Below the pieces are notes generated by a model. The model worked only from the letters and a program-made list of their open reading frames with translations. It did no database searches and was not told the DNA's origin. Below, in pieces: positions 8,160 through 62,140 of a stretch of DNA of 64,000 nt. A program made the position numbers and the translations under genes. The DNA comes from Chloroflexota bacterium (lineage in GTDB: Bacteria; Chloroflexota; Limnocylindria; P2-11E), in the NCBI GenBank assembly GCA_005882765.1, contig VBDV01000111.1, forward strand, positions 49,545 to 113,544, read 5' to 3'. Every line of letters begins with the position of its first letter. Position 1 is the stretch's first letter.

Positions 8160-9857
8160 TCAGTCGGCGGCCTCTCCCGTCGCGGCCTTCTTCGGTCCCT
8201 GAGCGCCACCACGCCGGCCGCGCCCGCCGCGCCGTCCGCGGCGCGTCCGCTTGCGCGGGACCGCTGTCGCCGGATCGCTGGACACGCCGACTGCGCTTGC
8301 GGCGGTCGGACTTGGTAGCGCCGGTGCCTCACCGGCCGGTAGCGCGGCTGGCATCGTGGCCGGCAGCGCAGCCACTGTGGGTCGGACCTCGCCGTTCAGC
8401 CGATCGAACTCGCCGAGGACCGTGCGCACCTCTTCATGCGCCTGATCGATGACGAACCCAGCCTTCTTCCCATGCTCCTCCGGGCGCATGACGCCTCGTT
8501 CGACCGCGCGTCGCATCGTCGACTCGAGCGCGTCACCCTCGACCCGCGACAAGAGCTCGGCGAAGAGGGCCTGGTTGACCCAGTCGATGCGCTCGCCCTT
8601 GGCGCGCGTCGATGCGACGAAGTTGAAGAGATGAACGATGGATGCAGCGGGCTGACGTGCGTACACGACGAGCGGGTGGCCTTCGGCGAGCCAGCACATC
8701 GTGATCTGCCGGCCTTCGCGTTCGACCTGCTCGGTCTGGATCGCGCCGCGCTCCTCGGCGATGTTAAAGAGGGTCTCGAGAAGGAGGCGCCGCTGCGAGC
8801 GTCCGCGGGCGAGACCACCGGGCTGATCGGCGCGCGACAACGGATCGAGGACGGCCTCGACCGCCGGGATGCGCCGGGTGTCCTTGCTCGTCACCGTGTC
8901 GATGCGGCGCAGCACCCGCACCAGGTGGAAGATCGTCTCGGCGACGAGGGGTGACGACATGTTCGGTGCGAGCATCTGCTTGGCCTTCGCGCGGGCGCGG
9001 CCCTCGAGCTTCGCGACGACCGTCCGCTGTTCGATGCCGGCGTCGATGCGCTGCTCGAGGACGCTCGATGCTTCCTTCTGCGAGAGGGGCACCACGCTCG
9101 TGACGAAGTCGCCGCGCGCCATGGCGCGGGCATGGAGCGCTACGAGCTGGTCTAGCAGGAGCACGGCGAGACGCCGCTGCTCCTTGTCGGACTCAGGAGA
9201 CGCTGTCGGCACGACGGCAGGAACGTGTGGCTCTGTTCTTACCCGCGCGGGGAGACGACCCCGTCGCTGTGGGGTCCGCCGCGCCAGCTCCGCGGTCGGT
9301 TGCGGCTTGTCCACCTGGGTGTCGTCGGCTCGCAGCGCCGCGCGGGTCCAGCGCGCCTGCGGAATGAGATCTTCAAGCAGGAAGACGTCGTCGCGGAGGT
9401 ATGGCGAGTCGCGGAGCTCGTTGGCGAGCGACTTGTCGCCGGCGATCAGGTAGACATGTTTGTCCTCGTCCTTGATCGCCTTGCAGAGAGCGTTCAGGTC
9501 GCGGTCGCCTGAGACGATGAACCAGTAGTCGATGTCCTGGCGTTCCTTGTAGAGGAGCTTCAGCGCTCGGGTGATCAAGACCGCGTCAGACCGGCCCTTG
9601 AGCAGCCGGCCGCTCATGCGCTGCGCGACGGCGATGGGTTCCATCCCCGTGAACTCGAGCGCCATCAGGAGCGTCTCGTCCTGGGTCGCGACCTCCTGAC
9701 CGAAGATCGCGAGCTTTACCCGGACGGGTCCGAACTCGGCGGCTTTTTGCAGGATCGCCTGCAGGATCGAGAGTGTTGACGGCAGCGGGCCCGTCGTGTG
9801 CTGGCGAAGTGTGTAGTAGACGTTCTCCCAGTCGATTAGGAGGGCAACGTCAGGCAA
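8160..9857 (-). CDS. NYN (LabA-like PIN-fold) domain protein with a long C-terminal extension and an RG-rich tail
   Basis: N-terminal LIDWENVYY...FIVSGDRD NYN motifs. The C-terminus is KRTRRGRRGGRGRRGG. Confidence 0.7.
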   Translation of the reverse strand: MPDVALLIDWENVYYTLRQHTTGPLPSTLSILQAILQKAAEFGPVRVKLAIFGQEVATQDETLLMALEFTGMEPIAVAQRMSGRLLKGRSDAVLITRALKLLYKERQDIDYWFIVSGDRDLNALCKAIKDEDKHVYLIAGDKSLANELRDSPYLRDDVFLLEDLIPQARWTRAALRADDTQVDKPQPTAELARRTPQRRGRLPARVRTEPHVPAVVPTASPESDKEQRRLAVLLLDQLVALHARAMARGDFVTSVVPLSQKEASSVLEQRIDAGIEQRTVVAKLEGRARAKAKQMLAPNMSSPLVAETIFHLVRVLRRIDTVTSKDTRRIPAVEAVLDPLSRADQPGGLARGRSQRRLLLETLFNIAEERGAIQTEQVEREGRQITMCWLAEGHPLVVYARQPAASIVHLFNFVASTRAKGERIDWVNQALFAELLSRVEGDALESTMRRAVERGVMRPEEHGKKAGFVIDQAHEEVRTVLGEFDRLNGEVRPTVAALPATMPAALPAGEAPALPSPTAASAVGVSSDPATAVPRKRTRRGRRGGRGRRGGAQGPKKAATGEAAD

Positions 9858-10040
9858 TGGCTTTCTCCGTATGGGCTTCGCACGCCGCCTGACTCGTCCG
9901 CGGATCGCGGAATTCCACCGCGGTCTCGCGCTTTTGCTCTCCCTCGTCCGCTACCCCGAAATTCGAGGCTCGGCCGTGAGCGCGTCCATCACGAACGCTT
10001 CAGTCGTCGCGCGCGCCGTTTCGTTCAACTGTAGCGTCTA

Positions 10041-11486
10041 ATGCGCGCCGTGACCATCACCCCTTCGGCATTGACCCATCTCGTTGAGGTCGCGTCTTCG
10101 CGAGGCGCAACGTACGCCGACGCGCGCACGGTCGAGCGCGAGCACGAGGCCGTCAGCGTCAAGGATGGCGCGGTCGAGTCCGTCACGCGCACCGCCGATC
10201 GCGGCCTTGGCTTTCGAGTGATCCACAAAGGCGCGTGGGGATTCGCGGCGACGGACCGCGCGGACGACGCCGCCCTACGCGGTCTCGTCGACGAGGCCTT
10301 CCGCCGCGCCGAAGCGTCCGCATCCGTGCAGCGGCGCACCGTGACGCTCGCGCCGATCGATCCGCAGCGCGGCGAGTACCGCACGCAGTTCGCGCGCGAC
10401 CCGTTCGCGGTACCGCTCGCCGAGCGCATCGACCATCTCCGCGCCGTCGACGCTGCCTCGGTCGGTCCGAACATCAAGACGCGCCGTTCATCCATCGCGG
10501 CGTATCGCACGCGCAAGCATCTCGTCACGAGCGAAGGCACCGACGTATCGCAGGAGATCGTCGAAGCCGGCGCCGGGCTCTCGGTCCTGGCGGTGAAAGC
10601 CGGGCGCAAGCCCGCCCCGCGATACGACTCGCGCCTCGTCCGGCAGGCGGGCTGGGAGTACGTCGAGCACCTTGACCTCGTCGCGCGCGCGAGACGCTAC
10701 CGCGATGACGCGGAGGCGACGCTCGACGCTCCGCTCGCGACGGAAAAGCCGACGACGCTGGTCTTTGCGCCAGAGTTCCTCGCGCTCCTCGTCCACGAGT
10801 CCTGCGGACATCCGACCGAGGCGGATCGGCTCCTCGAACATGAGGTCGCGTTCGCCGGAACGACCTTCATGTGGCCTGAAGACCGTGGAAAGCTGCGCTA
10901 CGGATCGCCGCACGTCTCGATGACCGCGGACGCGACGGTCCCTGGCGGTATGGGCACGTTCGGGTGGGATGACGACGGCGTCCCGGCGATGCGAACGAAG
11001 CTGATCGACAAAGGCACGTTCGTCGGATATCTGACGTCGCGTGAGACCGCAGGTGCGCTGGGCGTGCCGGTCGCGATCGGCTCGGCCAGGGCGGAGGGCT
11101 GGCAGCACTTTCCGATCGTGCGAATGGTGAACGTGAGTCTCGATCCCGGGACAACCCCCTATGCCGATCTTCTTCGCGGCGTCGACTCGGGCCTCCTGAT
11201 GGAAGCGCCGGCCTCCTACTCCCTTGACGACAAACGCCAGAACTTCCACTTCTCCACTCAATCTGCGCGCGTCATTCGCGATGGCCAGCTCGACGGCTAC
11301 CTGCGCGGAGTCGCGTTCCAGTCGCTCACCCCGGATTTCTGGGGCCGCTGCGATCTCGTCGCGGACGACTGGGAGCTTCACGGATTCCTCTCGTGCGCGA
11401 AGGGCGAGCCTCTGCAGCTGATGCGTGTCGGTCACGGCGCGGCCCACGCGCGCTTCCGCGACGTTCCCATCGAGGTCCGCGAGTGA
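10041..11486 (+). CDS. tldD: TldD family metalloprotease
   Basis: 481 aa with HESCGHPTE and the C-terminal conserved TldD/PmbA fold. Confidence 0.85.
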   Translation: MRAVTITPSALTHLVEVASSRGATYADARTVEREHEAVSVKDGAVESVTRTADRGLGFRVIHKGAWGFAATDRADDAALRGLVDEAFRRAEASASVQRRTVTLAPIDPQRGEYRTQFARDPFAVPLAERIDHLRAVDAASVGPNIKTRRSSIAAYRTRKHLVTSEGTDVSQEIVEAGAGLSVLAVKAGRKPAPRYDSRLVRQAGWEYVEHLDLVARARRYRDDAEATLDAPLATEKPTTLVFAPEFLALLVHESCGHPTEADRLLEHEVAFAGTTFMWPEDRGKLRYGSPHVSMTADATVPGGMGTFGWDDDGVPAMRTKLIDKGTFVGYLTSRETAGALGVPVAIGSARAEGWQHFPIVRMVNVSLDPGTTPYADLLRGVDSGLLMEAPASYSLDDKRQNFHFSTQSARVIRDGQLDGYLRGVAFQSLTPDFWGRCDLVADDWELHGFLSCAKGEPLQLMRVGHGAAHARFRDVPIEVRE

Positions 11487-42123: not shown

Positions 42124-42789
42124 CTAGCTGGCGGCGTTTTCTGATGCCGCGCCAGTGAGATCGATGAGCCTCGGGGCCGCGTCGATGTCGCTTTGGAACG
42201 CGAGCGCGATGGCCTGCGCGCGGCTGTGCACGCCGAGCTTGAGAAGGATGTGCTCGATGTGCTTCTCGACTGTCTTCGGCGTGATCACCAGATCACGCGC
42301 GATCTCCGCAGGATCGAGACCGCACGCGAGTAGCCGCAGGATCTCCAGCTCGCGCCGGGTGAGCCCGGCGACGACCGTCCGCGGGAGCGGGCGCGCGCGT
42401 CGCGCGAGGCGTTGTACGCGGGCGAGGAGCTCGTCCAGCACGAATGGCTTGATCATGTAGTCGTCGGCACCAAGCAACATGCCGGCAACCCGATCCATCG
42501 ACTCCTTGCGCTCGCCTGAAATCAAGATGATCCCAATGCTGTCGCCGTAGTCATCGCGTAGCCGCCGGCAGAGCTGATATCCCGAGATGTCCGGGAGATG
42601 CACGTCGAGCAGCACGACATCGGAGCTTTCACGCTGGATGAGGTACAGCGTCTCGCGCGCATCGGACGCGCGTCGCGTCATGAAGCCGTGCTCGGCGAGT
42701 GTCGTCGCGATGAGCTCGCAGATAACGGGGTCGTCGTCAACGACGAGCACTCGACCACGCGGCCGCCTGAGCGCTGACATAACGAGAAG
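42124..42789 (-). CDS. LuxR-type response regulator
   Basis: VLVVDDDP...VLLDVHLPDISG receiver and an LTRRELEILRLLACGL HTH. The start is taken at an internal Met, but the track ORF extends to 42903. Confidence 0.75.
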   Translation of the reverse strand, partial: LLVMSALRRPRGRVLVVDDDPVICELIATTLAEHGFMTRRASDARETLYLIQRESSDVVLLDVHLPDISGYQLCRRLRDDYGDSIGIILISGERKESMDRVAGMLLGADDYMIKPFVLDELLARVQRLARRARPLPRTVVAGLTRRELEILRLLACGLDPAEIARDLVITPKTVEKHIEHILLKLGVHSRAQAIALAFQSDIDAAPRLIDLTGAASENAAS

Positions 42790-43022
42790 GGCCACGCTTG
42801 CAAGAACCGCACCCAGGCGTGCTTCACAAGAAATATTGAGCGCAAGGACCGTATTTGATCGCATCGCTTGCCTTCGGCGTGCCCCGTACGACGTGTTCCC
42901 CATGAGGTCGTGCGGTGAAAAGCCGGTCGACGCCGCTCACTGCCTCGTGCGCGCGTTCGTAGCGTCCACGCGGTCGGCCCGCTAGGCCGACGAATTCTCT
43001 GCAAGGAGGCAGATCGGACGCA

Positions 43023-47272: not shown

Positions 47273-47830
47273 GTGAAGGGTCGACTGCTCGCGGGCGTTC
47301 TCCTTTGTGGTCTCGCGCTGTCCGCGTGCGGCGGCCCGGCGTCGGGCGGCGGGAATGAGACCGCCGCCGACGCGCTCAACCGCGGCCTCGCGGCGCACGC
47401 GGCCGGCAAGCTCGACGAAGCCGTCGCCGCGTACTTCACGACGCTTTCGAAAGACCCGAAGAACCAGTTCGCGTACTACAACCTCGGCGAGATCGCGCAG
47501 CGCCAGAGTCGCTTCGTCGCGGCCGAGTCCTATTACCGACTCGCGCTCGACCTCGACCCGAAGATGGAGAGCGCGCTCTTCAACCTCGCGATTGTGAGGA
47601 CGAACGCGGGGGCGACGGCCGACGCTGTCGCTCTCTACAAGCAGGTGATCGCCGTCAATGCGAACAACGCGGCCGCGCACTTCAACCTCGGGCTGTTGTA
47701 CCGCCAGCTCGGGCAGACCGCGGATGCGCAGACCGAGCTAGCGACCGCGCAGCGCCTCGACCCCAAGCTCGTAGCGCCGAGTCCCTCCGCGAGCCCGGCG
47801 CGACAGGTAACTCCGTCACCGACCAGGTGA
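47273..47830 (+). CDS. TPR-repeat lipoprotein
   Basis: LALSAC lipobox and 3-4 TPR units (YYNLG, LFNLA, HFNLGLLY). Confidence 0.75.
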   Translation: MKGRLLAGVLLCGLALSACGGPASGGGNETAADALNRGLAAHAAGKLDEAVAAYFTTLSKDPKNQFAYYNLGEIAQRQSRFVAAESYYRLALDLDPKMESALFNLAIVRTNAGATADAVALYKQVIAVNANNAAAHFNLGLLYRQLGQTADAQTELATAQRLDPKLVAPSPSASPARQVTPSPTR

Positions 47831-47900
47831 TCCGGTCCCGCCCGATCTAGCGCTCCCGCGTTTCCGGCGACTCGCGCTGATCGCGCTGGTCGCGATCCCG

Positions 47901-50900
47901 ATGGCCTTCAACGCCATCGCTCTGCTCCCCGAAGTGACCGGCGCGGTCCCGAATGTGAACGACGACGCCGAACATGCGCTGTTCATCCAGCAGGCATCCG
48001 ATGCGTGGGCGAGCGGACAGGACCCGCTCGACTTCTGGGTCCCGCAGGTGGAGCTCGGCTTTCCGCAGTTCCTCTACTACCAGAACCTTCCACATCTGGT
48101 CGTCGTCGTCCTCGGCAAGCTGACCTTCGGTCTCATCTCACTGCGGACCCTTTTCGATCTCGTCCGGTACGTGCTGCTCGTCGGTTTCCCGCTGACCGTG
48201 TTCTGGTCGATGCGGCGCCTGGGCTTCTCCGATGTTGCCGCGGCCATCGGTGCCGCGGCGGGATCCCTGCTAGGGGGGAACCACCGTTACGGCTTCGAGT
48301 ACGACAGCTACGTTTGGCGCGGTCTCGGTGTCTACACGCAGATCTTCGGCATGCATCTCTCGTTTCTCGCGCTCGCGGCGCTGCATCGTGTGGCGACGCG
48401 AGGCACCGGCATCGTCGTCGCCGCGCTGGTCTGCGGCGCGCTCGCCCTGTCGCACCTGATCTACGCGTACATGGCCGCGATCACGGCGGTCGTACTCCTG
48501 CTATTCGGTCTCACGCGCGCGAACATCGCCGGCCGAGTGCTGCGCTTCGGCGCGGTCGGCGCCCTCGCCGGCGTGATCAGCGCGTTCATGTGGGTCCCGT
48601 TCTTCGCGCAGGCCGGGTACCTGGATGTGAGCCCGTACCTCGATCGGACGAAATACGATTCCTTCGGCGCCCCGACGATCCTGGGCTGGCTCGCCTCAGG
48701 CGACCTCCTCGATCACGGACGCCTTCCGGTGCTCACGGCGTTGCTCGGGGTGGGGATCGTCGCCGCGCTCGTGACGCGCGCGCGGCTTCTTCTCCTCACG
48801 CTCGTCCTCTTCGTCCTGTGGCTCGTCCTCTACTTCGGACGGCCGACCCTTGGCCCGCTCGCCGATCTTCTGCCGCTGCACGAGGGACTGCTCTTCCACC
48901 GCTTCATTGGAGGCGTCGATCTCTTCGCGATATTGCTCATCGGCGCGGGCGGGGCGTACCTGTGGGAAATTGCTCGTTTCGAGGTGTCACCACGGCGCCT
49001 CGCAGCCGTGGCGGCGGCGACCGCGATCGTGTTCGTGCCGGTTCTTGCCGAGCGCTGGTCCTACTACAGCGACAACGCGACGTGGATGCGCATCACCCAG
49101 GCCGCCATCGCCGCCGATACGGATCTGCGGAGCGTGATGAGCGCGCTCGCGGGACAGTCGGCGGGCCGCGCGTACGCGGGACTCCGCAGCAATTGGGGAG
49201 ACACCCTCGACTTCGGGATTCCGTTCCGCTCGGTCCGCGTCTACAACGTGCTCACGTTCGATCGCGTCGATGCCGTCGCGCCGCCGTACCGTGGCGCGTC
49301 CCTGAACTCGGACCTGCTCTTCGATTTCAACGATCAAGACCCGGCCCAGTACCGTCTCTTCGACGTGGCGTACGTCATCGCGCCACCTTCGGCAACGCTC
49401 GCCTCGGGTCTCGTGCCAGTCCTTTCGACGCCGAAATACGTCCTCTACCGCGCGCCCGGCGGCGGGTATGCGGAGTACGCGGCGATCTCGCGGAGCGAGG
49501 CGCCCAAGAGTCAGCCGGAATGGTTCGAGAGCGCTCGAGCATGGCTTCGGGGCGGTTCGGCGACGAGCTGGGAGTTCGTGCGATACGCCTATCGCGACTC
49601 TCGCCCGATCGACGTCCCCGTTCCGATCGCCGAGTGCCCGCGCCCGGCCATCTCGTACCAGCGCGCCCAGCCGGGCCGGTACGACGTCCTCGCGACCTGC
49701 GCGACCGACTCGGCCATGGTGCTGAAAGTGACTTATCACCCGAACTGGCACGTGACCGTCGACGGCCATGAGGTTGCGACCTTCATGGTCTCGCCGAGCT
49801 ACCTCGCGTTCGCTCTCCCGGCGGGGCAGCACTTCATCACGGCGGAGTACCGATCGGCGCCAGTCAAAGATTCGCTGTTCTTTCTCGGCGCCGCGGTGGC
49901 GCTCGGCGCCATCGGCTCCCGGATCCGCCTGCGGGTGCCGCGACCCCGCGGCTGGCGCACCAGCATTCCATCCCTCCGCGAGCCGATCCTTCGCGCGCGC
50001 GACCTCGTCCTGATGAACGAGTCCGTCGCCGGGCCCGCGCTCGCCGTGGCAATCGCGGCGGTCGCGTTCCTCGTACTTGCGCCGTTCACGCCGCGCATCG
50101 CGTTCAACGATGGGCTTGGATTCGACGGTCGGGTCTACGCGTGGCTCACGCAGGCCCTGCGAGGTGACCACAGCGTCGCGGTCGTGCCACCGTGGTCGTT
50201 CCGCCTCGTCCCGAGCGCGATCGTCGCCCTATCCGGTCTTGAGGTGAAGCTCGGTTTCCTCCTCCTCGACCTCTTGGCGGCCCTCGGAAGCGCGTGGCTC
50301 CTTTACCGCCTGCTCCGGCACTACGCCGTCTCGCCGGCGCTCTCGCTCCTCGCCGTGGGCTGGTGGGCGGTGCTGCCACTCGGCCTGCGGTGGGCGCTCT
50401 ACTACCCGGTCCTTCCGGACACGCTCGGCTTCTTCCTTCTTCTCGCGCTCATGGTGTGCGCGCTCGAGGGTCGGTTCGTTGTGTTCGGCGGCATCCTGGT
50501 CGTCGCGGCGCTCACGCGCGAGAATCTCATCGCGCTCGGCCCGTTCCTCTGGCTCCTCCACGTTCGGCGTGATCCCGTTGGCGTGACCCTTCGGAGCCTC
50601 GGCGTGGGCGCCCCCGCCGTCCTCGTCTACCTTGCGGTGCGTTTCTTCCCGGTCGTGCCGCCGCCACCGGATTTTGCGAACTGGGCGGAGCGCTACCAGA
50701 TCGATGTCAACCTTCGCTTCGTCTTCGAGAACATCGACGCGCATGCGTGGCGCTATGTACTCGCGGCGCCGCTCACCCTCGGGATGTTCTTCGCTCTGCC
50801 GTTCGCATGGCCGCGACGTCTCGCCGGGTTCCTCCGCCGGGAGCTCCACTGGGCGTACTACGTCGCCATGTCCTTCGTCGTCGCGCTGGTCGGCGGCCGC

Positions 50901-51221
50901 GACGACGATCGTTACCTCTACGTTCTCGTGCCCGCGCTCGCGGTCTTCGTTTTCCATATCGCGCCTTCGTCGCTATGGCGGTCCGCCTGGCGCGTCGTGG
51001 CGCTGACGGCGCTCCACCTCGCGGCCGTGCGCTTCTTATGGCCGGTCGGCACGAGCGAGGCCGAATATCTCCAGTACACCGTGTCGGCGATGAGCGTCGA
51101 TCGCATGGTCGCGCTCGTCTACTTTTGCGGCGCCCTCGCGCTTGGGGGGATCGCGATCGCTCGGCTGGATCTCGGCGCGCTCAGTCCCGCACGCCGAGCC
51201 AAAGCAGAAGCGTCGGCTTGA
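47901..51221 (+). CDS. 1106-aa polytopic membrane protein (YfhO-like N-terminal ~800 aa plus a second polytopic C-terminal module; glycosylation-associated)
   Basis: One uninterrupted ORF with >20 hydrophobic segments. A GT2 gene is adjacent and convergent. The family assignment is tentative. Confidence 0.55.
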   Translation: MAFNAIALLPEVTGAVPNVNDDAEHALFIQQASDAWASGQDPLDFWVPQVELGFPQFLYYQNLPHLVVVVLGKLTFGLISLRTLFDLVRYVLLVGFPLTVFWSMRRLGFSDVAAAIGAAAGSLLGGNHRYGFEYDSYVWRGLGVYTQIFGMHLSFLALAALHRVATRGTGIVVAALVCGALALSHLIYAYMAAITAVVLLLFGLTRANIAGRVLRFGAVGALAGVISAFMWVPFFAQAGYLDVSPYLDRTKYDSFGAPTILGWLASGDLLDHGRLPVLTALLGVGIVAALVTRARLLLLTLVLFVLWLVLYFGRPTLGPLADLLPLHEGLLFHRFIGGVDLFAILLIGAGGAYLWEIARFEVSPRRLAAVAAATAIVFVPVLAERWSYYSDNATWMRITQAAIAADTDLRSVMSALAGQSAGRAYAGLRSNWGDTLDFGIPFRSVRVYNVLTFDRVDAVAPPYRGASLNSDLLFDFNDQDPAQYRLFDVAYVIAPPSATLASGLVPVLSTPKYVLYRAPGGGYAEYAAISRSEAPKSQPEWFESARAWLRGGSATSWEFVRYAYRDSRPIDVPVPIAECPRPAISYQRAQPGRYDVLATCATDSAMVLKVTYHPNWHVTVDGHEVATFMVSPSYLAFALPAGQHFITAEYRSAPVKDSLFFLGAAVALGAIGSRIRLRVPRPRGWRTSIPSLREPILRARDLVLMNESVAGPALAVAIAAVAFLVLAPFTPRIAFNDGLGFDGRVYAWLTQALRGDHSVAVVPPWSFRLVPSAIVALSGLEVKLGFLLLDLLAALGSAWLLYRLLRHYAVSPALSLLAVGWWAVLPLGLRWALYYPVLPDTLGFFLLLALMVCALEGRFVVFGGILVVAALTRENLIALGPFLWLLHVRRDPVGVTLRSLGVGAPAVLVYLAVRFFPVVPPPPDFANWAERYQIDVNLRFVFENIDAHAWRYVLAAPLTLGMFFALPFAWPRRLAGFLRRELHWAYYVAMSFVVALVGGRDDDRYLYVLVPALAVFVFHIAPSSLWRSAWRVVALTALHLAAVRFLWPVGTSEAEYLQYTVSAMSVDRMVALVYFCGALALGGIAIARLDLGALSPARRAKAEASA

Positions 51222-51897
51222 CGATGCTCCACCAATCGCGGACCCGTCGGATCTTCGAGTAGTTGCCGCCGCCCTTGGGGTAGGTCTTCGAGACCCCGAC
51301 CTCGATGACGCGATACCCGAGCTTGATCGCTTTCCAGTGCACGTAGTACTCGAGCTCGTACCGGTCGAGCCACGACTGATCGATGCGGATCCGCGGATCG
51401 TCGAGCAACGACAGCCGGTACGCGCGGTACCCGTTTGTCACGTCGGTCCCGGCAAAGCCGGAAAGCAGGTGGAAGAGGATCGTGTATCCGCGGATCATGA
51501 GACCGCGACCGCGTGGCAGATAGACGCTTGAGCCGCCCTCGGCCAGGAACCGGGATCCCTGGACGTAGTCGTACCCGGCTCGGAGCTTATCGATGAGCCG
51601 CGAGGCCTCGGCCGGATCGTCTTTCCCGTTCGCCGCGAGCACGACGACCGCGCCGTGACCGCTCGCACGAGCCGCCTCGATACCCGTTCGGATGGCGGCG
51701 CCGACGCCCCGGCGCCGGTCCTGGGAGATCACCCGAGCGCCGGCCTCGCGCGCGAGGTCGGGCCCGCCATCGTCGGAACCGTCGTCAACAACGATCGTCT
51801 CCGAGATGATCGGCGGGACGCGACGGACGAGCCCGGCGATCGCGTGACGCTCGTTGAACAGCGGAAAGATCATCGCGACGGTCCCGATGTCGGCCAC
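51181..51897 (-). CDS. family 2 glycosyltransferase (polyprenol-phosphate sugar transferase, Dpm1-like)
   Basis: VVDDGSDDG DxD-type motif and a GT-A fold. Confidence 0.85.
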   Translation of the reverse strand: MADIGTVAMIFPLFNERHAIAGLVRRVPPIISETIVVDDGSDDGGPDLAREAGARVISQDRRRGVGAAIRTGIEAARASGHGAVVVLAANGKDDPAEASRLIDKLRAGYDYVQGSRFLAEGGSSVYLPRGRGLMIRGYTILFHLLSGFAGTDVTNGYRAYRLSLLDDPRIRIDQSWLDRYELEYYVHWKAIKLGYRVIEVGVSKTYPKGGGNYSKIRRVRDWWSIVKPTLLLWLGVRD

Positions 51898-51922: not shown

Positions 51923-52606
51923 TTAGCGGATCGGATCCTTCTCGAGCAGACCGCGGTTGTGCACGTAGAGGGCAGCCTGCGTGCGGTCGGTGAGCTCGAG
52001 CTTGCTGAAGATGTTCGAGATATGCGTTTTTACGGTGCGCTCGCTGATCCCGAGCGTCGCCGCGATCTCCTTGTTGGCTCTGCCGCTCGCCACGAGCTTC
52101 AACACCTCGCGCTCGCGTGCGGTGAGATCGCTGTAACCCTCGTCGTCGCCGGTGGGGCGGTCGCCGGCGCGCAACCGACCGAACTCATCGAGCACGCGCT
52201 TGGCGACCGACGGGTAGATGAGTGAGAAACCGTCGGCCACGGTGCGGATCGCGTTGGTGAGCTGGCTGCCGGTGACCTCCTTCAGGAGGTATCCCGACGC
52301 GCCCGCGCGAATCGAGCTGAACACCAGCTCGTCCTCGTCGTAGTTCGTGAGGACGATCACGCGCGACGACGGTACGGAGTTGCGCACGCGCCGCGTGGCC
52401 GTGACCCCGTCCCAGTCGCCCATCTTTATGTCCATGAGGATCACGTCGGGCAGAAGCTCCTGCGCCACGGCGAGCGCCTCGTGTCCGTCGCCGGCCTCGC
52501 CGACGACCTCTATCTCGGGCTCGGTCTCGAGTATTGACCGCAGGCCGCTGCGGACGAGGGCGTGATCGTCGGCGATGAGGACGCGGATCTTCCGAATCTC
52601 GCTCAT
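51923..52606 (-). CDS. NarL/LuxR family response regulator
   Basis: VLIADDH...ILMDIKMGDWDG receiver and an LTAREREVL...SERTVKTH HTH. Confidence 0.9.
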   Translation of the reverse strand: MSEIRKIRVLIADDHALVRSGLRSILETEPEIEVVGEAGDGHEALAVAQELLPDVILMDIKMGDWDGVTATRRVRNSVPSSRVIVLTNYDEDELVFSSIRAGASGYLLKEVTGSQLTNAIRTVADGFSLIYPSVAKRVLDEFGRLRAGDRPTGDDEGYSDLTAREREVLKLVASGRANKEIAATLGISERTVKTHISNIFSKLELTDRTQAALYVHNRGLLEKDPIR

Positions 52607-54756
52607 CGCCCGAAGAGCCTTCCGAGGAAGCTTGCCTTTTCGGTCCGCTCGAGATCCTCGATCGCGCCGCGCTGATCGGTGTCCTCGACGGTGTCGGTCC
52701 AGCCGGGCGGGGCGCCGTCGACGGTGATCCGGTAGGGGATGGTCGCGCGGACGATCGTGCCTCGGCCGGGCTCGCTGCGGACGACGAGCTGTCCGCCCAC
52801 ACCTTCGGCCCGCTCGCGCATTCCGACGATGCCGTAATGGCCCCGCTCTTCGGCGGTGTTGAGCTCGTTCGACTCGAATCCCTTGCCATCGTCCTCGATC
52901 GTCGCGACGACCTGCTCGTCGTCGTATCTCAAAATCACCTTGGCGTTAGACGCGCCCGAGTGCTGCCCGACGTTGCGCAGACCCTCGCCGATGATCCGAA
53001 TGACGGCGCGCTCGACGAAGGGCTCGAGCGGACGCTCCACGCCGGTCTCCTCGAAGTCCACCGCGACTCCGCTCTGCCGGCGGAGGTCGTCCGCGAGGCG
53101 CGCGACGGTCACCGGCAGGTTCAGGCCGCCGGCCTCTTCGGTCTGCCGCAATGCCGCCATGTACTGCCGCACATCGGAGAGCGTCGCCCGCGCGTCCCGC
53201 GCGGCTTTCGCGAGCTGGGGCCCGAGCGCCGCTGGATCGCGATCGAGCGCGCGCTGGCAGCCCTCGAGCGCAAGGACGACGCCGGTGAGCTCCTGGGCGA
53301 CACCGTCATGCAGCTCCTGTGAGATGCGCCGCCGTTCGTTCGACGCGGTGCGCTGCACGAGGTCGGTCGATGCCGATTTCTGCAGCATGCCGGAGAGATA
53401 CTCGCCGAGCGTCGAGACGAAGTCGGCCTCCGCCGACGTATAGGGGGTGGTTGCGCGACCCAGGACGAGGACGCCGAGGACCACGCCGTTCTGCGATCCG
53501 CCGATCGGCGCCAGCAGGAAGTGCGTCGATGACGGCGCGGCCCAGTCCGGACGGTCTTCGGCCATGCCGTACTGCGCCGTCGCGGTGCGGCGCTCGCGAA
53601 GCACCTGCGCGAGCACCGTGTCCGTGCCCGACGTGGAAATGTCCGCGGGGGTGATGTCGCCGTAGCCGGTCGCGGCACGGAGATGGAGGTGATGCTCCTC
53701 CGCGGCCCATACGCCGACCGCATCGTGACGCAGGTTGTCGGCGAGCATCGCGACGGCGCTCTCGAGATCGTTGTGCGGGTCGATGCCGAGTGTCGCGAAG
53801 CGTGAGAGCTCGTAGAGCACGAGCGCCTGCCGGCGATCCTCCTCGGCTCGCTGGAACTCTTCGGCTGTCAGGAGGGCGGAGGCGATCTCCGCCGCGGCCT
53901 GCGTGAGCGAGTCGACCTGTACCTGGCTGTAGCGCTCTTGCTGGGCGCGGTGCTTCACGCTGACGACGCCGAGCGTGCGGCCGTTCGAGCGAAGCGGAGC
54001 GATCATGGCCTCGCTCGCGGTCGGGTCGGACCCGCCCTGCACCTGGCCGGAGAGCAGCATCGACCGGCCGGTCTGGGCGACCGTTCCGGAGATGCCTTCA
54101 CCGATCCGCTTCCGGTCGAGCTTCGCGGCATCCGGGAGTCCGCGCGAGCTTCGCACCGAGAGCTCGCCCTGCGCGTCCGCGAGCATGATCGAGACGCCAT
54201 CCGCGCCGAAGACGTCCGCGAGCTGTGCCGTCGCGCGCTCGAGCAATTGGTCGGGATCGCGCTCCTTGCGGATGATCGCCTGGAGGTCACGCGATGCTTT
54301 GAGCTTCGCTTCGGCGTCCTGCCCCTGCCTCTGCGCGCGCCAGAGCGCGTTCGCCTCCGCGAGCTCGAGGCCGATGAGATCGCCGACACGACCGAGACTC
54401 GCGAGATCCTCGGCCGAGAAGGCCCGACCGGCGAGCATCGCGGCGAGACCCCCGACGACCTGATCCTTCCAGATGACCGGAGACACCGCGAGGGTGTCGG
54501 CGAGGCGGCCGTCTGAGAGCGGGAGCGCCACCCCACTCGTCGCCTGTTCAGTGGAGCGTTCGCTCATCGCCTTCGCGAGCATCGCCGCGGGCATTCCCTG
54601 GCTCCACTTTGTCTCGGTGGGGAGGTTGTGGGCGACGTAGGTCGCGTAGCCCTCACCTTTCAGGTTCAGAATTACGGCGATCGCGTCCGCCCGCGCGAGC
54701 TTCGCGAGGTACGCCATGCGCGCGTTCCAGAAGTCGGCGTCGAGTCGGAGGGTCAC
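52603..54756 (-). CDS. cytoplasmic multi-GAF sensor histidine kinase (HisKA_3/HATPase)
   Basis: 717 aa. Three GAF-like regions, an LHDGVAQ H-box and a HATPase C-terminus. ATGA overlap with the downstream RR. Confidence 0.85.
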   Translation of the reverse strand: MTLRLDADFWNARMAYLAKLARADAIAVILNLKGEGYATYVAHNLPTETKWSQGMPAAMLAKAMSERSTEQATSGVALPLSDGRLADTLAVSPVIWKDQVVGGLAAMLAGRAFSAEDLASLGRVGDLIGLELAEANALWRAQRQGQDAEAKLKASRDLQAIIRKERDPDQLLERATAQLADVFGADGVSIMLADAQGELSVRSSRGLPDAAKLDRKRIGEGISGTVAQTGRSMLLSGQVQGGSDPTASEAMIAPLRSNGRTLGVVSVKHRAQQERYSQVQVDSLTQAAAEIASALLTAEEFQRAEEDRRQALVLYELSRFATLGIDPHNDLESAVAMLADNLRHDAVGVWAAEEHHLHLRAATGYGDITPADISTSGTDTVLAQVLRERRTATAQYGMAEDRPDWAAPSSTHFLLAPIGGSQNGVVLGVLVLGRATTPYTSAEADFVSTLGEYLSGMLQKSASTDLVQRTASNERRRISQELHDGVAQELTGVVLALEGCQRALDRDPAALGPQLAKAARDARATLSDVRQYMAALRQTEEAGGLNLPVTVARLADDLRRQSGVAVDFEETGVERPLEPFVERAVIRIIGEGLRNVGQHSGASNAKVILRYDDEQVVATIEDDGKGFESNELNTAEERGHYGIVGMRERAEGVGGQLVVRSEPGRGTIVRATIPYRITVDGAPPGWTDTVEDTDQRGAIEDLERTEKASFLGRLFGR

Positions 54757-54765
54757 GGAGAGGCC

Positions 54766-56706
54766 CTACGCCACGCCGGCGCCGGCCTCGCCCTCGATGC
54801 GGAGCTCCAGGGAGGTGCCGCCACTGCGCTGTAAGGCGAAGCGCGGCTGTTCTAGGGTCGCGATCGCGGACCAGAGCTCGTCCACCAGCATGGGTACACG
54901 GAGTCCGACCGCGAGCGTCGCGACGCCTCCCCTGAAGTCACGCACGTAGAGCGTACGGACCTGCGCCAGCGACTGAATGCGCCGCTCGATGTCCACGAGC
55001 CGGGCGAACGACGGTACGGGCGAGAGCATGAGCACAATGTTGCTGGTCGGAGCCGCCGGCTCCTCCCTCTCGAGAGTGACTTGCTCCGGTTCCGTTACCC
55101 CTTGGGCCGGTTCGCGCTCCACCACGGTCAATTCGGGGGGCGCCGGAGAGGTCTCGACGGCCTTTTCTGTCGGTCTGGAGAAGACCTCATCCTCCTCCAC
55201 GACTGGCGGCGGCTGCGTCGCTCTGGACGCCAGAGCGGCCCGCGCCGCCTCCTGGGCAGCACGCGCGGCCGTCTCGGCGACGCGCGCGGCCTCGGCGATA
55301 CGGAGGGCCTCGACGGTGGCGGCGCGCCGCACCTCCTCGGCCGCAAGCCGGGCCCCCTCGGCGCGGCGCGCCTCTTCCTCGCGGCGCTGCTGGTCGCGAC
55401 GCTCCTCTTCTTGCCTCCACTGGGTCGCGCGCCGCTGCTCCTCCTCGCGCCATCTCGCGGCTCGCTGTTCCTCGTCCTCACGCCGTTGCTGCTCGAGACG
55501 CACCGCGTCCGCGACGCGGGCTTCGTCGGCGGCTCGGCGCGCTTCCTCGGCCGCACGCGCCGCGGTCGTGGCGCGCTCCACCTCCTGAGCCGCGCGCTCC
55601 GCGTCGGCGGCGCGGTCGGCCCCGGCCGCGCGGGCGGCCTCCTGTGCGGCGCGCATCGCCTCTTCTGCGGCGCGCACGGCCTCCGCGGCCCGCTGCGTCT
55701 CGCCGGCGCGATCGGCCTCCGCGGCGCGGGCCGCCTCCTGTGCGGCGCGCATCGCTTCCTGCGCGGCACGAGCGGCCTCAGCCGCGCGCTGGGCTTCGAC
55801 CGACCGATCCGCTTCGGCCTGCTGGTGCGCGAGTCGCTGCGCTTCCGCGAGCTTCCGCGCCTCGTCGGCGGCGCGAGCCGCCTCTTCGGTCGCGCGCTGC
55901 GCCTGCTCCGCGACGCGAGCCGCTTCTGCGGCGCGCTCCGCCTCCGCGGCGCGCTGCGCCTCGAGAGCGCGACGCGCTTCCTCCTGGGCCGAGCGCGCCT
56001 CGTCCTGTGCAACGCGCGCCTGCTCCTGCGCGGTCTTCGCCTGCGCCGCGGCGGCGTTGGCCTCGCGGGCCGCGTCCGCGACCGTTCCCGCTTGACGACG
56101 GATGTCCTCGAGGAGCTCGGTGAAGACACCGCGCAGCGCGTCGGCCGCGAGCGCGCGCGACTCGGCGGTGGTCTCCTCGGGCGCCTTCTCAGGCGCGGCA
56201 GCCGATTCGCGGCGTGGTCCGCGGAGCGCGGAAAAGCCGCTCCGCCGGTTCGACGCGATCTCGTCGACGAGGCCGTCGCGCTCTTCACGGAGCCGCTCGA
56301 TCTCTTTGATCAGCATCTTCCGCTCATCTCGGGCCTGCTCGAGGATCTGCTGCGCAGCGTTCTCGGCTCGGGCGCGGATCTCGTGAGCGGCTCGCAGCGC
56401 ACCGGACAAGGCGTCGCGCACGGTGGCGTCGAATTCTTCGTACACCGCGACACGCTTGCGCGCCGCATCAAGCTCCGATTCGAGCGAGCCGACGCGCTTG
56501 GTGAGCTCGCTGACACGATCGGAGAGCGCGCCGATGATGTCTCCGGACGCGCCTAGACCTCTGGGCCCCTCGGACACGCGGTCGCCCTCCAAATGCTCGC
56601 TTCTCTGCCCACTTCCCCGCGTGTGGCGCAGAGCGTATACGACTGCGGCCGGGAAGGGCATCATCCGCGCATCACGCGGCCAAAGGTCTTGCTCGTCGTG
56701 GGGCAC
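54766..56706 (-). CDS. DivIVA-domain protein with a ~300-aa Ala/Glu/Arg coiled-coil and a C-terminal ~85-aa globular domain
   Basis: N-terminal DivIVA-like segment (IIGALSDRVSELTKRVGSLESELD...). Long AEAARAAQEA repeats. Start ambiguous, as the first Met overlaps the divergent gene. Confidence 0.6.
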   Translation of the reverse strand: MPHDEQDLWPRDARMMPFPAAVVYALRHTRGSGQRSEHLEGDRVSEGPRGLGASGDIIGALSDRVSELTKRVGSLESELDAARKRVAVYEEFDATVRDALSGALRAAHEIRARAENAAQQILEQARDERKMLIKEIERLREERDGLVDEIASNRRSGFSALRGPRRESAAAPEKAPEETTAESRALAADALRGVFTELLEDIRRQAGTVADAAREANAAAAQAKTAQEQARVAQDEARSAQEEARRALEAQRAAEAERAAEAARVAEQAQRATEEAARAADEARKLAEAQRLAHQQAEADRSVEAQRAAEAARAAQEAMRAAQEAARAAEADRAGETQRAAEAVRAAEEAMRAAQEAARAAGADRAADAERAAQEVERATTAARAAEEARRAADEARVADAVRLEQQRREDEEQRAARWREEEQRRATQWRQEEERRDQQRREEEARRAEGARLAAEEVRRAATVEALRIAEAARVAETAARAAQEAARAALASRATQPPPVVEEDEVFSRPTEKAVETSPAPPELTVVEREPAQGVTEPEQVTLEREEPAAPTSNIVLMLSPVPSFARLVDIERRIQSLAQVRTLYVRDFRGGVATLAVGLRVPMLVDELWSAIATLEQPRFALQRSGGTSLELRIEGEAGAGVA

Positions 56707-57105
56707 CCGACCATCGGCGCAGCGCTCGAGGCGCTGCTCCGGATAGAGGATCGATACGAGGTGAGGCGCGCACAGTCGTTAGAACAGGTCACATCCAGCT
56801 TGGACGGCTGGGTCGCCGACCTCGCTCTCGTCGATGGCGTGCTGGTTCAGAGGGGAAGGACAGAGGTTCTACCAATGCCAACCATCGTGCTTTCGGGCAA
56901 TCCGCGCGACGGCCGCAGACTGTCCGGACACTTCGTCCGGGGTCAGGGCTGGCTCCGGAAGGACGCGACCGCCGAGGAGATCCGGGTCGCGATCGATCGG
57001 GCGCTCGTACCTGCAGCGCGCCGGTGGTCGGTGCTCGTCGTCATGGCGCTCCTCGTGCTGGTGGTGATCGTGATCGTGATCGCCCGGTACCTGCTACAGG
57101 TCTAG
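56593..57105 (+). CDS. tail-anchored pseudo-receiver protein, paralog of 32225..32686
   Basis: VLLVVGHPTIGAALEALLRIEDRYEVRRA versus VLLVVSHPSVGAGIETILRLERRYEVRRA. C-terminal TM (VLVVMALLVLVVIVIVIARYLL). Start uncertain. Confidence 0.55.
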   Translation: MLASLPTSPRVAQSVYDCGREGHHPRITRPKVLLVVGHPTIGAALEALLRIEDRYEVRRAQSLEQVTSSLDGWVADLALVDGVLVQRGRTEVLPMPTIVLSGNPRDGRRLSGHFVRGQGWLRKDATAEEIRVAIDRALVPAARRWSVLVVMALLVLVVIVIVIARYLLQV

Positions 57106-57113
57106 GGGTCGAC

Positions 57114-57686
57114 ATGGCCAAGGACGACAAGAAGAAAAAGAAACCGAGTGAGGACGTCGTCGATCTGGCGGCGCGGATCGGCGCGCGTCAGTCGTCGCCC
57201 AACACGACCCCTCCCGACGTCGCACCACCGCAGGCACCGCCACCGCCTCCGCCCACACGCCTCGACGGACCTATCCCTTCGGCTCCGAAGCCGCGCCTCG
57301 TACCGGCCAAAGAGGATCGGCTCCAGGGCGCGATGATCCAGAAGGCCCTGGTCGAGGAGGATCAAAAGCCCGAGCCCGCGATCCCATCCCCGCGCGCGGC
57401 GCCCGGACCGGGCGAGATCGATCTCGTCGTCACGCCGCTCCCCACACCGGACGACTGGCACCGCTTCGAGCTCGCGCTCCGCAAGGTGCGCGGGGTGGGG
57501 CAGCTTCGGACCGAGTACTACCGGCACGGCGTCCTGAAGGTGAGAGTGAGCTACCAGGGAGCGGACCGCCTTGCCGCCGTGCTCCGCGCCGGCGTTCCCG
57601 GATATCGCGTCCGGGTCATCGGCGAGGACCGCGCGACGTTGCAGATCCTGGTCACATCCGAGGGTGACGAGCGCCGGCCCGGCTGA
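57114..57686 (+). CDS. Lys-rich/Pro-rich hypothetical protein with a C-terminal domain shared with the DivIVA-like protein
   Basis: N-terminal MAKDDKKKKKP and PPQAPPPPPP. C-terminus IDLVVTPLPTPDDWHRFELALRKVRGVGQLRTEYY...VRVSY aligns with the DivIVA-like protein's C-terminus. Confidence 0.5.
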   Translation: MAKDDKKKKKPSEDVVDLAARIGARQSSPNTTPPDVAPPQAPPPPPPTRLDGPIPSAPKPRLVPAKEDRLQGAMIQKALVEEDQKPEPAIPSPRAAPGPGEIDLVVTPLPTPDDWHRFELALRKVRGVGQLRTEYYRHGVLKVRVSYQGADRLAAVLRAGVPGYRVRVIGEDRATLQILVTSEGDERRPG

Positions 57687-59341: not shown

Positions 59342-62140
59342 ATGGCAATCGCTGACATCGCGGAAGTCTCTGTTGAGCGCGCGGAGCCGAAAGGCCTTCG
59401 GATCGACCGCCGTTTCACTCGCGAGGGCACCCACCCGTACGACGAGATCGAGTGGGAGCGCCGCGACTCGGCAATCCCGGGTGAGACCGGCAACGTCTTC
59501 GAGCAGAAGGCCGTCGAGGTCCCGAAGTTCTGGTCGCAGACGGCCACGAACGTCGTCGCGTCGAAATACTTCCGCGGCAAGCTCGGCTCGCCCGAGCGTG
59601 AGTCAAGCGTTAAGCAGATGGTCGATCGCGTCGTCGACACCATCGCCCGCGCCGGTTTCGAGGGCGGCTATTTCGCGAGCGCTTCAGATCGCGACGCCTT
59701 CGCCGACGAGCTCAAGTACCTCATGGTCCACCAGTACGCCTCGTTCAACTCGCCGGTGTGGTTCAACATCGGAGTGGAGGGAGTTCCCCAACAGGCGAGC
59801 GCGTGCTTCATCCTCTCGGTCGAGGACGACATGCACTCCATCCTCGACTGGTTCCGTGACGAGGGGATCATTTTCAAGGGCGGGTCCGGCTCGGGCGTGA
59901 ACGTCTCACGGATCCGGTCGCAGAAGGAGAACCTCTCCGGCGGCGGCTTCGCCTCCGGTCCGGTGTCGTTCATGCGCGGTGCCGACTCGGTCGCCGGCTC
60001 GATCAAGTCGGGGGGCACCACGAGGCGCGCCGCGAAGATGGTCATCCTCGACGCCGACCACCCTGATCTCCACGAGTTCATCTGGTGCAAGGCCAAAGAA
60101 GAAAAGAAGGCGTGGGCGCTCGGCGAGGCGGGCTACGACATGAGCCTGAACGGGGAAGCCTGGCAGTCGATCCAGTTCCAGAACGCGAACAACTCCGTGC
60201 GCGTGACCGACGAGTTCATGAAGAAAGCTCAGACCGACGAGGACTGGAGTCTCACCGCGCGGATCGGCGGGAACGTCCTCGAGACGCTGAAGGCGCGTGC
60301 GCTTTTGAGGGAGATCGCGGAAGCCGCATGGCAATGCGGGGATCCGGGCATGCAGTTCGACACGACGATCAACGACTGGCACACCTCTCCGGCGAGTGGA
60401 CGGATCAACGGATCGAACCCGTGCAGCGAGTACATGAGCATCGACGACTCGGCGTGCAATCTCGCGTCGCTCAATCTGCTTCGCTTCGTGCACAGCGACG
60501 GCGAGTTCGACGTCGAACGCTTCCGGGCCGCCGTCGAGATCGTCTTCACGGCGCAGGAGATCCTCGTCGGCCACTCCGACTACCCGACCGCGAAGATCGC
60601 CGAGAACGCGCGCTCCCACCGTCAGCTCGGTCTGGGGTACGCAAACCTCGGCGCGCTCCTCATGCAGCGCGGGTTGCCGTACGACTCGAACCAGGGCCGT
60701 GCCTATGCCGCCGCGGTGACCGCACTCATGACCGGTGCGGCGTACTCGCAGTCCGGTCGGATCGCGGAAGCAGTGGGGCCGTACGAGGCGTACCCGAAGA
60801 ACAAGGACGCGCACGACCGGGTCATCCAGATGCACCGACTGCACGCATACCGCATCCGGGACGAGCTCCTCCCCGCGAGTCTTCTTTCGGCGGCGCGTCA
60901 GGCCTGGGACGACGCGGTCGCGTTCGGGCGGCCCGCGGGATATCGCAACGCGCAGGCATCGGTCCTCGCGCCGACGGGAACGATCAGCTTCATGATGGAT
61001 TGCGACACGACCGGCGTTGAGCCGGACATCGCGCTCGTGAAGTACAAGAAGCTCGTCGGTGGCGGGATGCTGAAGCTCGTCAACGGGAGCGTCCCCACGG
61101 CGCTACGGCGCCTTGGGTACAGCGACACCGAGTCCGGCGCCATCACCACCTACATCGAGCAGTACGGCACCATCGAAGGTGCCCCCGGCATCAAGGACGA
61201 GGATCTCCCGGTCTTCGACTGCGCGTTCAAGCCGCAGAACGGCGAGCGCACGATCCACCACATGGGCCACATCAAGATGATGGGTGCGGTCCAGCCATTC
61301 ATCTCCGGTGCGATCTCGAAGACCGTGAACCTTCCCGAGACCGCGACCATCGACGATGTCACCGAGGCGTACGTCGAGGCGTGGAAGCACGGGCTCAAGG
61401 CCATCGCCGTCTATCGCGACGGAAGCAAGAAGGTCCAGCCCGTCAACACGACCAACAAAGAGAGCAACGCCAAGGCCGTCGAAACGGTCGTCGAGCGCAT
61501 CGTCGAGGTCACGCGGCCGCAGCGTCGCCGCCTCGCCGACACGCGGGCGTCGCTCACGCACAAGTTCTCGATCGAGGGTCACGAGGGATACATCACCGTC
61601 GGGCTGTTCGAGGACAACACTCCGGGTGAGCTCTTCGTCACCATGGCGAAGGAAGGTTCGACCCTGTCGGGCATGATGGACGCGTTCGCGACGAGCGTGT
61701 CGCTGCTCTTCCAGTACGGCGTTCCGCTCTCGCACCTCGTCGAGAAGTTCGGGCATATGCGTTTCGAGCCCGCCGGTTGGACCGGCAATCCCGAGATCGG
61801 TTTCGCGAAGTCGATCGTCGACTACGTCTTCCGCTGGTTGGGGAACCGTTTCCTATCCGAGCCCGACCGCGCGGCGCTCGGGCTTGTCCGCACGACCGAG
61901 GTCGCCGACGCGACGTCACAGCTCGAGCTTCTGAATCGCGTTGTACAGCTCGCGACACCCGAAGTGCCGGCCGCGAACGGCAACGGGCACGCCGTCGCCC
62001 CCGTCCCCGACGCCCCCGGCTACCGACGACTCAATTCCACACCCGACGCGCCCCCCTGCCCGCGCTGCGGCTGGCTCACCGTTCGAAGCGGCACCTGCCA
62101 CAAGTGCGAGAACTGTGGAGAGACGACCGGGTGTAGCTGA
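59342..62140 (+). CDS. nrdJ: class II adenosylcobalamin-dependent ribonucleotide reductase
   Basis: 932 aa. NPCSEY active-site Cys loop, a B12-dependent RNR core and a C-terminal CxxC...CxxC zinc ribbon. Confidence 0.95.
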   Translation: MAIADIAEVSVERAEPKGLRIDRRFTREGTHPYDEIEWERRDSAIPGETGNVFEQKAVEVPKFWSQTATNVVASKYFRGKLGSPERESSVKQMVDRVVDTIARAGFEGGYFASASDRDAFADELKYLMVHQYASFNSPVWFNIGVEGVPQQASACFILSVEDDMHSILDWFRDEGIIFKGGSGSGVNVSRIRSQKENLSGGGFASGPVSFMRGADSVAGSIKSGGTTRRAAKMVILDADHPDLHEFIWCKAKEEKKAWALGEAGYDMSLNGEAWQSIQFQNANNSVRVTDEFMKKAQTDEDWSLTARIGGNVLETLKARALLREIAEAAWQCGDPGMQFDTTINDWHTSPASGRINGSNPCSEYMSIDDSACNLASLNLLRFVHSDGEFDVERFRAAVEIVFTAQEILVGHSDYPTAKIAENARSHRQLGLGYANLGALLMQRGLPYDSNQGRAYAAAVTALMTGAAYSQSGRIAEAVGPYEAYPKNKDAHDRVIQMHRLHAYRIRDELLPASLLSAARQAWDDAVAFGRPAGYRNAQASVLAPTGTISFMMDCDTTGVEPDIALVKYKKLVGGGMLKLVNGSVPTALRRLGYSDTESGAITTYIEQYGTIEGAPGIKDEDLPVFDCAFKPQNGERTIHHMGHIKMMGAVQPFISGAISKTVNLPETATIDDVTEAYVEAWKHGLKAIAVYRDGSKKVQPVNTTNKESNAKAVETVVERIVEVTRPQRRRLADTRASLTHKFSIEGHEGYITVGLFEDNTPGELFVTMAKEGSTLSGMMDAFATSVSLLFQYGVPLSHLVEKFGHMRFEPAGWTGNPEIGFAKSIVDYVFRWLGNRFLSEPDRAALGLVRTTEVADATSQLELLNRVVQLATPEVPAANGNGHAVAPVPDAPGYRRLNSTPDAPPCPRCGWLTVRSGTCHKCENCGETTGCS

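Follow-up and report, generated by a model that had tools for sequence, protein, structure and literature searches.

Do two neighbouring bacterial proteins with very different N-termini end in the same domain, and what could such a domain do? The question is raised by a locus in a 64,000-nucleotide stretch of DNA (the window) from a Chloroflexota bacterium of the Limnocylindria (assembly GCA_005882765.1, contig VBDV01000111.1, positions 49,545 to 113,544). Protein A (54766..56577, minus strand, 603 aa) consists of four parts: a coiled coil, a spacer, a Pro/Glu linker and a C-terminal domain. Protein B (57114..57686, plus strand, 190 aa) combines a Lys-rich N-terminus, short motifs between Pro-rich spacers and a C-terminal domain. 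An initial annotation proposed that the two proteins share their last ~85 residues and belong to a common localisation system, possibly at poles or septa. The open reading frames (ORFs) and peptides that it quoted are present in the window. Limnocylindria, formerly Ellin6529, are abundant uncultured Chloroflexota of soil and freshwater. We know of no information on their cell biology, and a literature search for Limnocylindria in combination with DivIVA found nothing.

The C-terminal domains of A and B are homologous

Direct comparison of the two C-termini gives a limited signal. BLASTP aligns them with 28% identity across 65 aa (E=0.004 for a single comparison), and the Smith-Waterman score (z=3.9) is equalled in 8 of 2000 shuffles. 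A search with each C-terminus alone yields a family of well-conserved members (55 and 81 matches), with no overlap between the two lists. These values would also fit a chance or convergent resemblance between two unrelated small α/β domains. Ferredoxin-like folds emerge frequently, and both family alignments are low in diversity.

Comparison of the families argues strongly against this explanation. Using trimmed alignments of 52 and 72 sequences (Neff ~2 each), hhalign matched the A family to the B family over 80 of ~90 columns with a probability of 86%, P=4.7e-6 and a score of 35.1. The highest control scores for the B profile were 20.2 in 200 column-permuted and 22.3 in 200 block-permuted versions, and the reversed profile scored 11.7; the observed score thus exceeds the maximum of all 400 permutations. 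The B-family hidden Markov model (HMM) matches A-type domains of relatives with E ~1e-3 over HMM positions 2-85. A merged-profile search also returned intermediates that score alike and significantly on both family HMMs (P0218, 35/40 bits; P0216, 40/32 bits), and a single mixed profile recovers A and B types at E 1e-25 to 1e-31 among 5.8 billion proteins. MAFFT alignment of a mixed A/B set reproduces the register and indels of hhalign, and the order of secondary structure and the indel positions match between the structural models. Chance or convergence is therefore effectively refuted, and we regard it as very improbable. A and B are paralogous across their last ~85 residues. The initial annotation had described an alignment position by position; this is not strictly so, as the alignment contains three 3-residue indels and one 1-residue indel.

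No third copy of the domain was found in the window by a six-frame HMM search. The N-terminal motifs DIIGALSDRV of A and VVDLAARIG of B were considered as possible homologues and rejected (hhalign probability 0.8%, score 9.4 vs a permutation maximum of 9.0).

The A-type copy (54769..55044, minus strand) and the B-type copy (57408..57683, plus strand) are both 92 aa long. AlphaFold2 models calculated from the two independent family alignments have predicted local distance difference test (pLDDT) values of 92.1 for A and 90.6 for B, with predicted template modelling scores (pTM) of 0.82 and 0.80. The predicted order of elements is identical, β1-α1-β2-β3-α2-β4-β5, and both models show a ferredoxin-like α/β sandwich plus one extra strand. 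The superfamily-conserved positions (L5, V6, S8, P9, S12, F13, L16, E/Q20, V29, F37, G40, A42, V46, L57, L61 and E/Q80) are chiefly core residues and the hairpin glycine, together with a [ST]-P-x-x-[ST]-F motif in the β1-α1 loop.

The domain is absent from the curated libraries. In Pfam, neither the window copies at E<=1 nor ten diverse members at E<=10 found a match, a single stray HMA match among the ten (E=0.14) aside. NCBIfam contains no match to the domain, and the merged domain profile found none among the PDB sequences. The relatives are all annotated as 'hypothetical protein' and carry no precomputed Pfam domains. A Foldseek search of the PDB with both models returned nothing with E<0.01 and no template modelling (TM) score above 0.5. 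What is new is thus the domain family and, as described below, the strikingly conserved module around it, while the fold class itself is common. The family, structurally confident at the level of prediction, is a clear candidate for Pfam/InterPro, and its small, apparently well-folding domain would be a convenient target for experimenters. Membership of the SPOR, HMA and ACT families was considered and rejected, since none has profile support.

The weak, generic Foldseek matches shared by both models (HMA, MerP, ACT, RAM and S6; E 0.07-0.6, TM<0.5) raise the possibility of an ACT/RAM-like small-molecule sensor, through which A and B would regulate the neighbouring kinase in response to a bound metabolite or nucleotide. 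The predicted fold of the domain resembles the general β-α-β-β-α-β sandwich of ACT, RAM and HMA domains, which are the best, though weak, structural matches of both copies; regulatory domains also occur among the weak matches. ACT domains bind ligand at the β1-α1 loop, where the most conserved non-core motif of the new family is located, and signalling genes abound around the locus. However, Pfam ACT (PF01842) and related families gave no match at the thresholds above, the structural similarity stays below a TM score of 0.5, and the C-terminal strand is additional. The β1-α1 serine can equally be explained as a helix N-cap. With the sequences SPVPSF (A) and TPLPTPDDW (B), the loop contains no cysteine, and the CxxC motif of HMA domains is absent. 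Moreover, one secreted protein contains 5-7 tandem copies of the domain, which would be unusual for a metabolite sensor. We consider a ligand sensor unlikely, though by no means negligible.

A conserved domain on diverse scaffolds

The DivIVA-like part of A is confined to its first ~115 residues (56233..56577, minus strand), which resemble the coiled-coil region (CC1/CC2) of the DivIVA/Wag31/GpsB family. The Pfam DivIVA profile (PF05103) is matched with a small margin (29.1 bits vs a cut-off of 28, E=1.1e-6) over profile positions 29-108. NCBIfam contains no DivIVA-domain match for A at E<=1, and a PDB sequence search with A returned keratin-type coiled coils but neither a DivIVA nor a GpsB chain. 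The membrane-binding structure of DivIVA is formed by the first ~21-23 residues (crossed loops), ahead of CC1 (PMC12585849). Judged from its sequence, A is missing this head, because the Pfam match begins at position 29 with only ~15 residues of A preceding it, and because the NCBIfam and PDB searches found no match. The DivIVA membrane-curvature module proposed in the initial annotation is therefore not upheld.

The ORF of A spans 54766..56706 on the minus strand, and the true start is a GTG at 56577, 43 codons further in. This assignment is based on a GGAGG sequence 8 nt upstream of the GTG and on the N-terminus VSE[ED]PKGLGASGDIIG (also given as VSE[ED]PKGLGASGDIIGALS), which is conserved in protein A orthologues from ~40 genomes. 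A lipid-binding head encoded in the longer ORF from 56706 was considered and rejected, given the Shine-Dalgarno sequence before GTG 56577 and the lack of conservation of the extension in orthologues.

The long middle part of A (residues ~191-470; 55168..56007, minus strand) was initially described as an AEAARAA coiled coil. Its properties do not bear this out. The spacer is a helical, repeat-derived segment rich in Ala, Glu, Arg and Gln (34% Ala, 19% Glu, 18% Arg), with 8.9% large hydrophobics and a best heptad a/d occupancy of 0.18, compared with 0.56 in residues 1-100 of A. Its DNA is built of imperfect tandem repeats with periods of 18, 21, 42 and 96 nt. Across orthologues, which measure 328-866 aa overall, the spacer varies from ~120 to ~650 aa or is replaced by a Pro-rich sequence: the middle region is Ala/Glu/Arg/Gln-rich in the clade of the window and contains 20-34% proline in other clades. 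The spacer thus behaves as a freely drifting segment and not as a conserved coiled coil; it is possibly a single α-helix or an Ala-zipper. We take this variability as an argument that functional modules lie at the two ends of A only. The repeats also affect database entries. Owing to scaffold gaps in the repeat region, many 'proteins' of 85-170 aa are incomplete or have been assigned a wrong start, and the apparent splitting of the A orthologue into two genes in loci L001 and L004 was dismissed as an artefact of N runs inside the repeats.

The overall layout of A, with a conserved coiled coil, a variable middle and a C-terminal region, is also found in actinobacterial DivIVA (PMC12585849). A differs from DivIVA in the absence of the N-terminal membrane-binding head, in the location of its gene in a two-component operon instead of the dcw cluster, and in its C-terminus, which is predicted to be a folded ferredoxin-like domain. 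The C-terminal domain of Kitasatospora viridifaciens DivIVA, by contrast, is predicted to be unstructured by AlphaFold3 (PMC12585849).

Protein B has a very different N-terminal half, as initially noted. The conserved elements are a Lys-rich patch and the motifs [VP][VI]DLA[AS]RIG, RLDGP[IL]P and IPSPRxxPGPG, separated by variable Pro-rich linkers; in the window they read VVDLAARIG, RLDGPIP and IPSPRxxPGPG. Full-length relatives of B measure 184-224 aa, and in one lineage (L004, L026 and L027) only the domain itself is left of B. The start codon, ATG 57114, is preceded by AGGGG and lies 9 nt past the stop codon of the upstream pseudo-receiver gene. The basic N-terminus, Pro-rich linker and small α/β C-terminal domain are reminiscent of SepF. 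This assignment was rejected for lack of profile support: B has no Pfam match of any kind at E<=1, and the 50 best PDB matches from Foldseek include no SepF chain.

Beyond A and B, the merged profile recovers 129 clusters at 50% identity from 1.84 billion representatives, and the domain family amounts to 852 clusters at 90% identity. The domain forms the last ~85 residues in nearly all members, and its position on diverse scaffolds is thus almost exclusively C-terminal. An N-terminal DivIVA coiled-coil match is present in 28 of 97 representatives (best E 1.6e-7), and these matches likewise begin at about profile position 29. Other scaffolds are the B-type Lys/Pro-rich proteins, Cys-rich CxxC...CCxxC heads (P0235, P0242, P0243 and P0247), a receiver domain (P0219), membrane anchors (P0237 and P0240), an LpoB-annotated lipoprotein that ends in the domain (P0249), and secreted proteins with 2-7 tandem copies (P0232, P0229 and P0153). 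Since the secreted P0153 and the lipoprotein P0249 carry the domain, it is not confined to the cytoplasm.

The Cys-rich heads have the form CxxC...(F)CCxxCxxGGPCxC, which we take to be reminiscent of TRASH/YHS-type metal-binding motifs. P0153, encoded in a low-GC organism (L054, 7001-9481), is secreted, contains ~7 tandem copies and lies directly upstream of a 945-aa CsgG/LpoB-domain protein. Contigs from metagenome-assembled genomes (MAGs) of uncultured soil Chloroflexota ('Candidatus Limnocylindria'), such as VBIZ01000179.1, carry the domain at 100% identity.

A conserved gene module in Limnocylindria

Two transcription units diverge in this region. A is followed on the minus strand by a histidine kinase, a response regulator and a small family 2 glycosyltransferase (GT2); the plus-strand unit consists of the pseudo-receiver and B. 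The kinase (52603..54756, 717 aa) is cytoplasmic and has the Pfam architecture GAF-GAF-GAF/HisKA_3/HATPase_c; its GTG start lies 9 nt beyond the stop codon of A. The NarL/LuxR-type regulator (51923..52606) overlaps the kinase gene by 4 nt. Together they make up a canonical two-component system, with HisKA_3 and HATPase_c domains in the kinase and REC and GerE domains in the regulator, all above the Pfam cut-offs. The H-box of the kinase, ELHDG, is present, and the nearest models for the pair are DesK, NarX, LiaS and NarL. The GT2 gene (51181..51897) begins 25 nt 3' of the regulator gene. Its product resembles polyprenyl-phosphate sugar synthases, its nearest families, with scores under the family cut-offs. 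It is probably the last gene of the operon; no terminator-like site was found on the minus strand.

We recovered 46 species-representative genomes with A-family patterns and tallied the gene context over evaluable loci. The kinase directly follows A in 43/43 loci and the NarL-type regulator is present in 35/35. B is located divergently upstream of A in 33/35, which substantiates the functional linkage of the two proteins that had been suggested initially. The pseudo-receiver, originally noted as flanked by A and B, occupies this position in only 23 of 35 loci and is thus an optional component of the module. A GT2 gene follows the regulator in 12/46 loci, and a YfhO-family protein is encoded in the flank of 17/46. 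The strongest association of the two proteins is with signalling genes. Limnocylindria thus possess an almost invariant module, B <- (pseudo-receiver) <-> A -> GAF/HisKA_3 kinase -> NarL-type regulator, often accompanied by GT2/YfhO. It amounts to a highly conserved set of four to six genes that unites DivIVA-derived scaffolds with a two-component system and often with envelope-glycan genes.

The pseudo-receiver (about 56593..57105, plus strand, start codon uncertain) matches Pfam Response_reg weakly and partially (E=0.063, profile positions 1-51). It retains the Asp at the LVD position as well as the receiver Ser and Lys, while GHP replaces the usual acidic Mg-binding pair. A strongly hydrophobic helix, WSVLVVMALLVLVVIVIVIARYLL, closes the protein, which from these features looks like a tail-anchored, receiver-like protein.

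Related arrangements occur in other lineages. Locus L052, from a distant Chloroflexi MAG, encodes two domain-ending proteins side by side, analogous to the A/B pair, with a GAF/HisKA_3 kinase and a NarL regulator after them. A second soil clade (43 loci) has a receiver-domain gene ~200 bp downstream of the DivIVA-like domain protein in 38/38 evaluable cases; in L068 (7464-12155) this gene encodes a 1563-aa REC-MshEN-GT2 protein. An MshEN-GT2 giant is also located directly downstream of the Cys-rich P0242 in L053 (8612-12601). These (REC-)MshEN-GT2 proteins resemble the polysaccharide-synthase architecture of NfrB, a synthase controlled by cyclic di-GMP (PMC8669469; MshEN, PMC5013675). L052 contains two paralogous GAF/HisKA_3 kinase and NarL regulator pairs within 11 kb (1-2794 and 8587-11403), with a PAS-GGDEF-EAL protein between them.

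The GT2 and YfhO genes have a counterpart in Bacillus subtilis, where the GT2 protein CsbB and YfhO form a pair required for lipoteichoic-acid glycosylation (PMC5836110). In the window, a tetratricopeptide repeat (TPR) protein (47273-47830) and a YfhO-family membrane protein of 1106 aa (47901-51221), both on the plus strand and convergent on the A operon, are partly conserved neighbours. Together with the small GT2, they form a CsbB/YfhO-type envelope glycosylation set adjoining the operon (47273-51897). The likeness concerns the neighbours of the domain-bearing genes and not homologues of the domain proteins themselves, and the association is one of gene neighbourhood and is partial. No accessory protein of this kind has been described for the CsbB/YfhO and NfrB systems in the papers cited above (PMC5836110, PMC8669469, PMC5013675).

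A kinase-family partner of a DivIVA scaffold is known from the Streptomyces polarisome, where the histidine-kinase-family protein PsmA is coupled physically and functionally to DivIVA (PMC12963549). In Limnocylindria, a kinase gene is invariably found in an operon with that of a DivIVA-like protein. PsmA is a hybrid pseudokinase that lacks the catalytic His, whereas the kinase of the module keeps the HisKA_3 H-box and a cognate NarL-type regulator. PsmA may thus serve as a precedent by analogy and is not homologous in detail.

Following the initial annotation, the domain could be a targeting signal that brings A and B to poles or septa within a localisation system akin to that of DivIVA. In Actinomycetota, enzymes of envelope synthesis are recruited by DivIVA scaffolds (PMC12585849, PMC12963549); A contains a DivIVA-type coiled-coil segment, and envelope glycosylation genes adjoin the operon. 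The Lys-rich N-terminus of B and the C-terminal helix of the pseudo-receiver could touch the membrane. Yet A lacks, as far as its sequence indicates, the DivIVA membrane-binding head. The invariant partner is a soluble kinase and not a division or elongation gene, and the fetched loci showed no dcw, min or par genes. In other phyla, the domain is also carried by exported proteins, lipoproteins and membrane-anchored proteins; its occurrence in secreted and lipoprotein contexts speaks against a dedicated cytoplasmic signal for pole targeting. Polar or septal targeting therefore appears improbable to us.

A possible docking function

What, then, could the domain do for A and B? With a confidence just short of even, we infer that it acts as a protein–protein docking or oligomerisation module that ties the two proteins to the two-component system. 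Five features suggest this function. The domain is a compact C-terminal module grafted on many unrelated scaffolds, and it can be tandemly repeated. Adjacent pairs of paralogues occur in two distant lineages, and a domain-bearing gene is translationally coupled to that of a soluble kinase. Finally, A is conserved at its two ends only, while the spacer between them drifts.

On this reading, A, as a head-less DivIVA-type scaffold, and B, as a mostly disordered, motif-bearing adaptor, would bind each other or a common partner through the domain. The likeliest common partner would be the co-translated soluble GAF kinase. The resulting complex would assemble or position the two-component system, which probably governs envelope-glycan genes. 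A would be unable to bind the membrane in the manner of DivIVA; any membrane tethering would come from the C-terminal helix of the pseudo-receiver or the basic N-terminus of B, and not from A.

Several observations weigh against a docking function. Conserved polar sites are few (S8-P9, S12, E/Q20, R38 and E/Q80), and conservation mostly concerns core hydrophobics and the turn glycine, so that no interface can be pinpointed. Ferredoxin-like domains bind ligands equally often. The pairing of A and B is not universal: B is missing at L028 and L030, loci of clade 2 carry a single domain copy, and L002 and L003, from a more distant lineage, have B with no A-type gene within the fetched flanks of 8-9 kb. 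Only 12 and 17 of 46 loci show the linkage to GT2 and YfhO, respectively.

If the domain is indeed an assembly module, DivIVA-type coiled coils would have been re-purposed after the loss of their membrane-binding head, and an accessory layer would have been added to HisKA_3/NarL signalling. In a more far-reaching version, the domain would be a hetero- or homo-oligomerisation clasp that joins A, B and the soluble GAF kinase. These proteins would then represent an unrecognised class of multi-component signalling scaffolds in Chloroflexota that places or gates a two-component system in control of envelope glycosylation or exopolysaccharide synthases. Other lineages would employ the same clasp on scaffolds of the Cys-rich, receiver, membrane and secreted multi-repeat kinds. 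This extended version is speculative, and we give it a low probability.

Comparison of the loci provided a number of minor observations. In L002 and L003, B adjoins TPR-YfhO(-GT2) genes, and the full trio is located beside B in L003. Tad/TadE pilus-assembly genes lie between B and the aminotransferase and ribonucleotide reductase genes in L002, L003 and L005, and an OmpR-type two-component pair is also inserted there in L002 and L005; the window has neither insertion. Downstream of the cluster, the window encodes a class II ribonucleotide reductase (59342-62140, 932 aa) that appears intein-free, while those of relatives (L003, 13263-15164; L005, 11984-13785) measure 1341-1771 aa and contain a LAGLIDADG intein. 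Further away in the window, a second NarL/LuxR-type response regulator (42124-42903, minus strand) is encoded ~9 kb off the module. The segment 34001-38000 has a GC content of 0.71-0.74 with positive GC and AT skew, compared with ~0.66-0.69 in the rest of the window. Near-identical copies of the locus are present in five MAGs (L007, L012, L027, L031 and L047) labelled as Candidatus Udaeobacter, Bathyarchaeia, Dormiibacterota, Acidiferrales and Gemmatimonadaceae, which suggests binning contamination in these assemblies.

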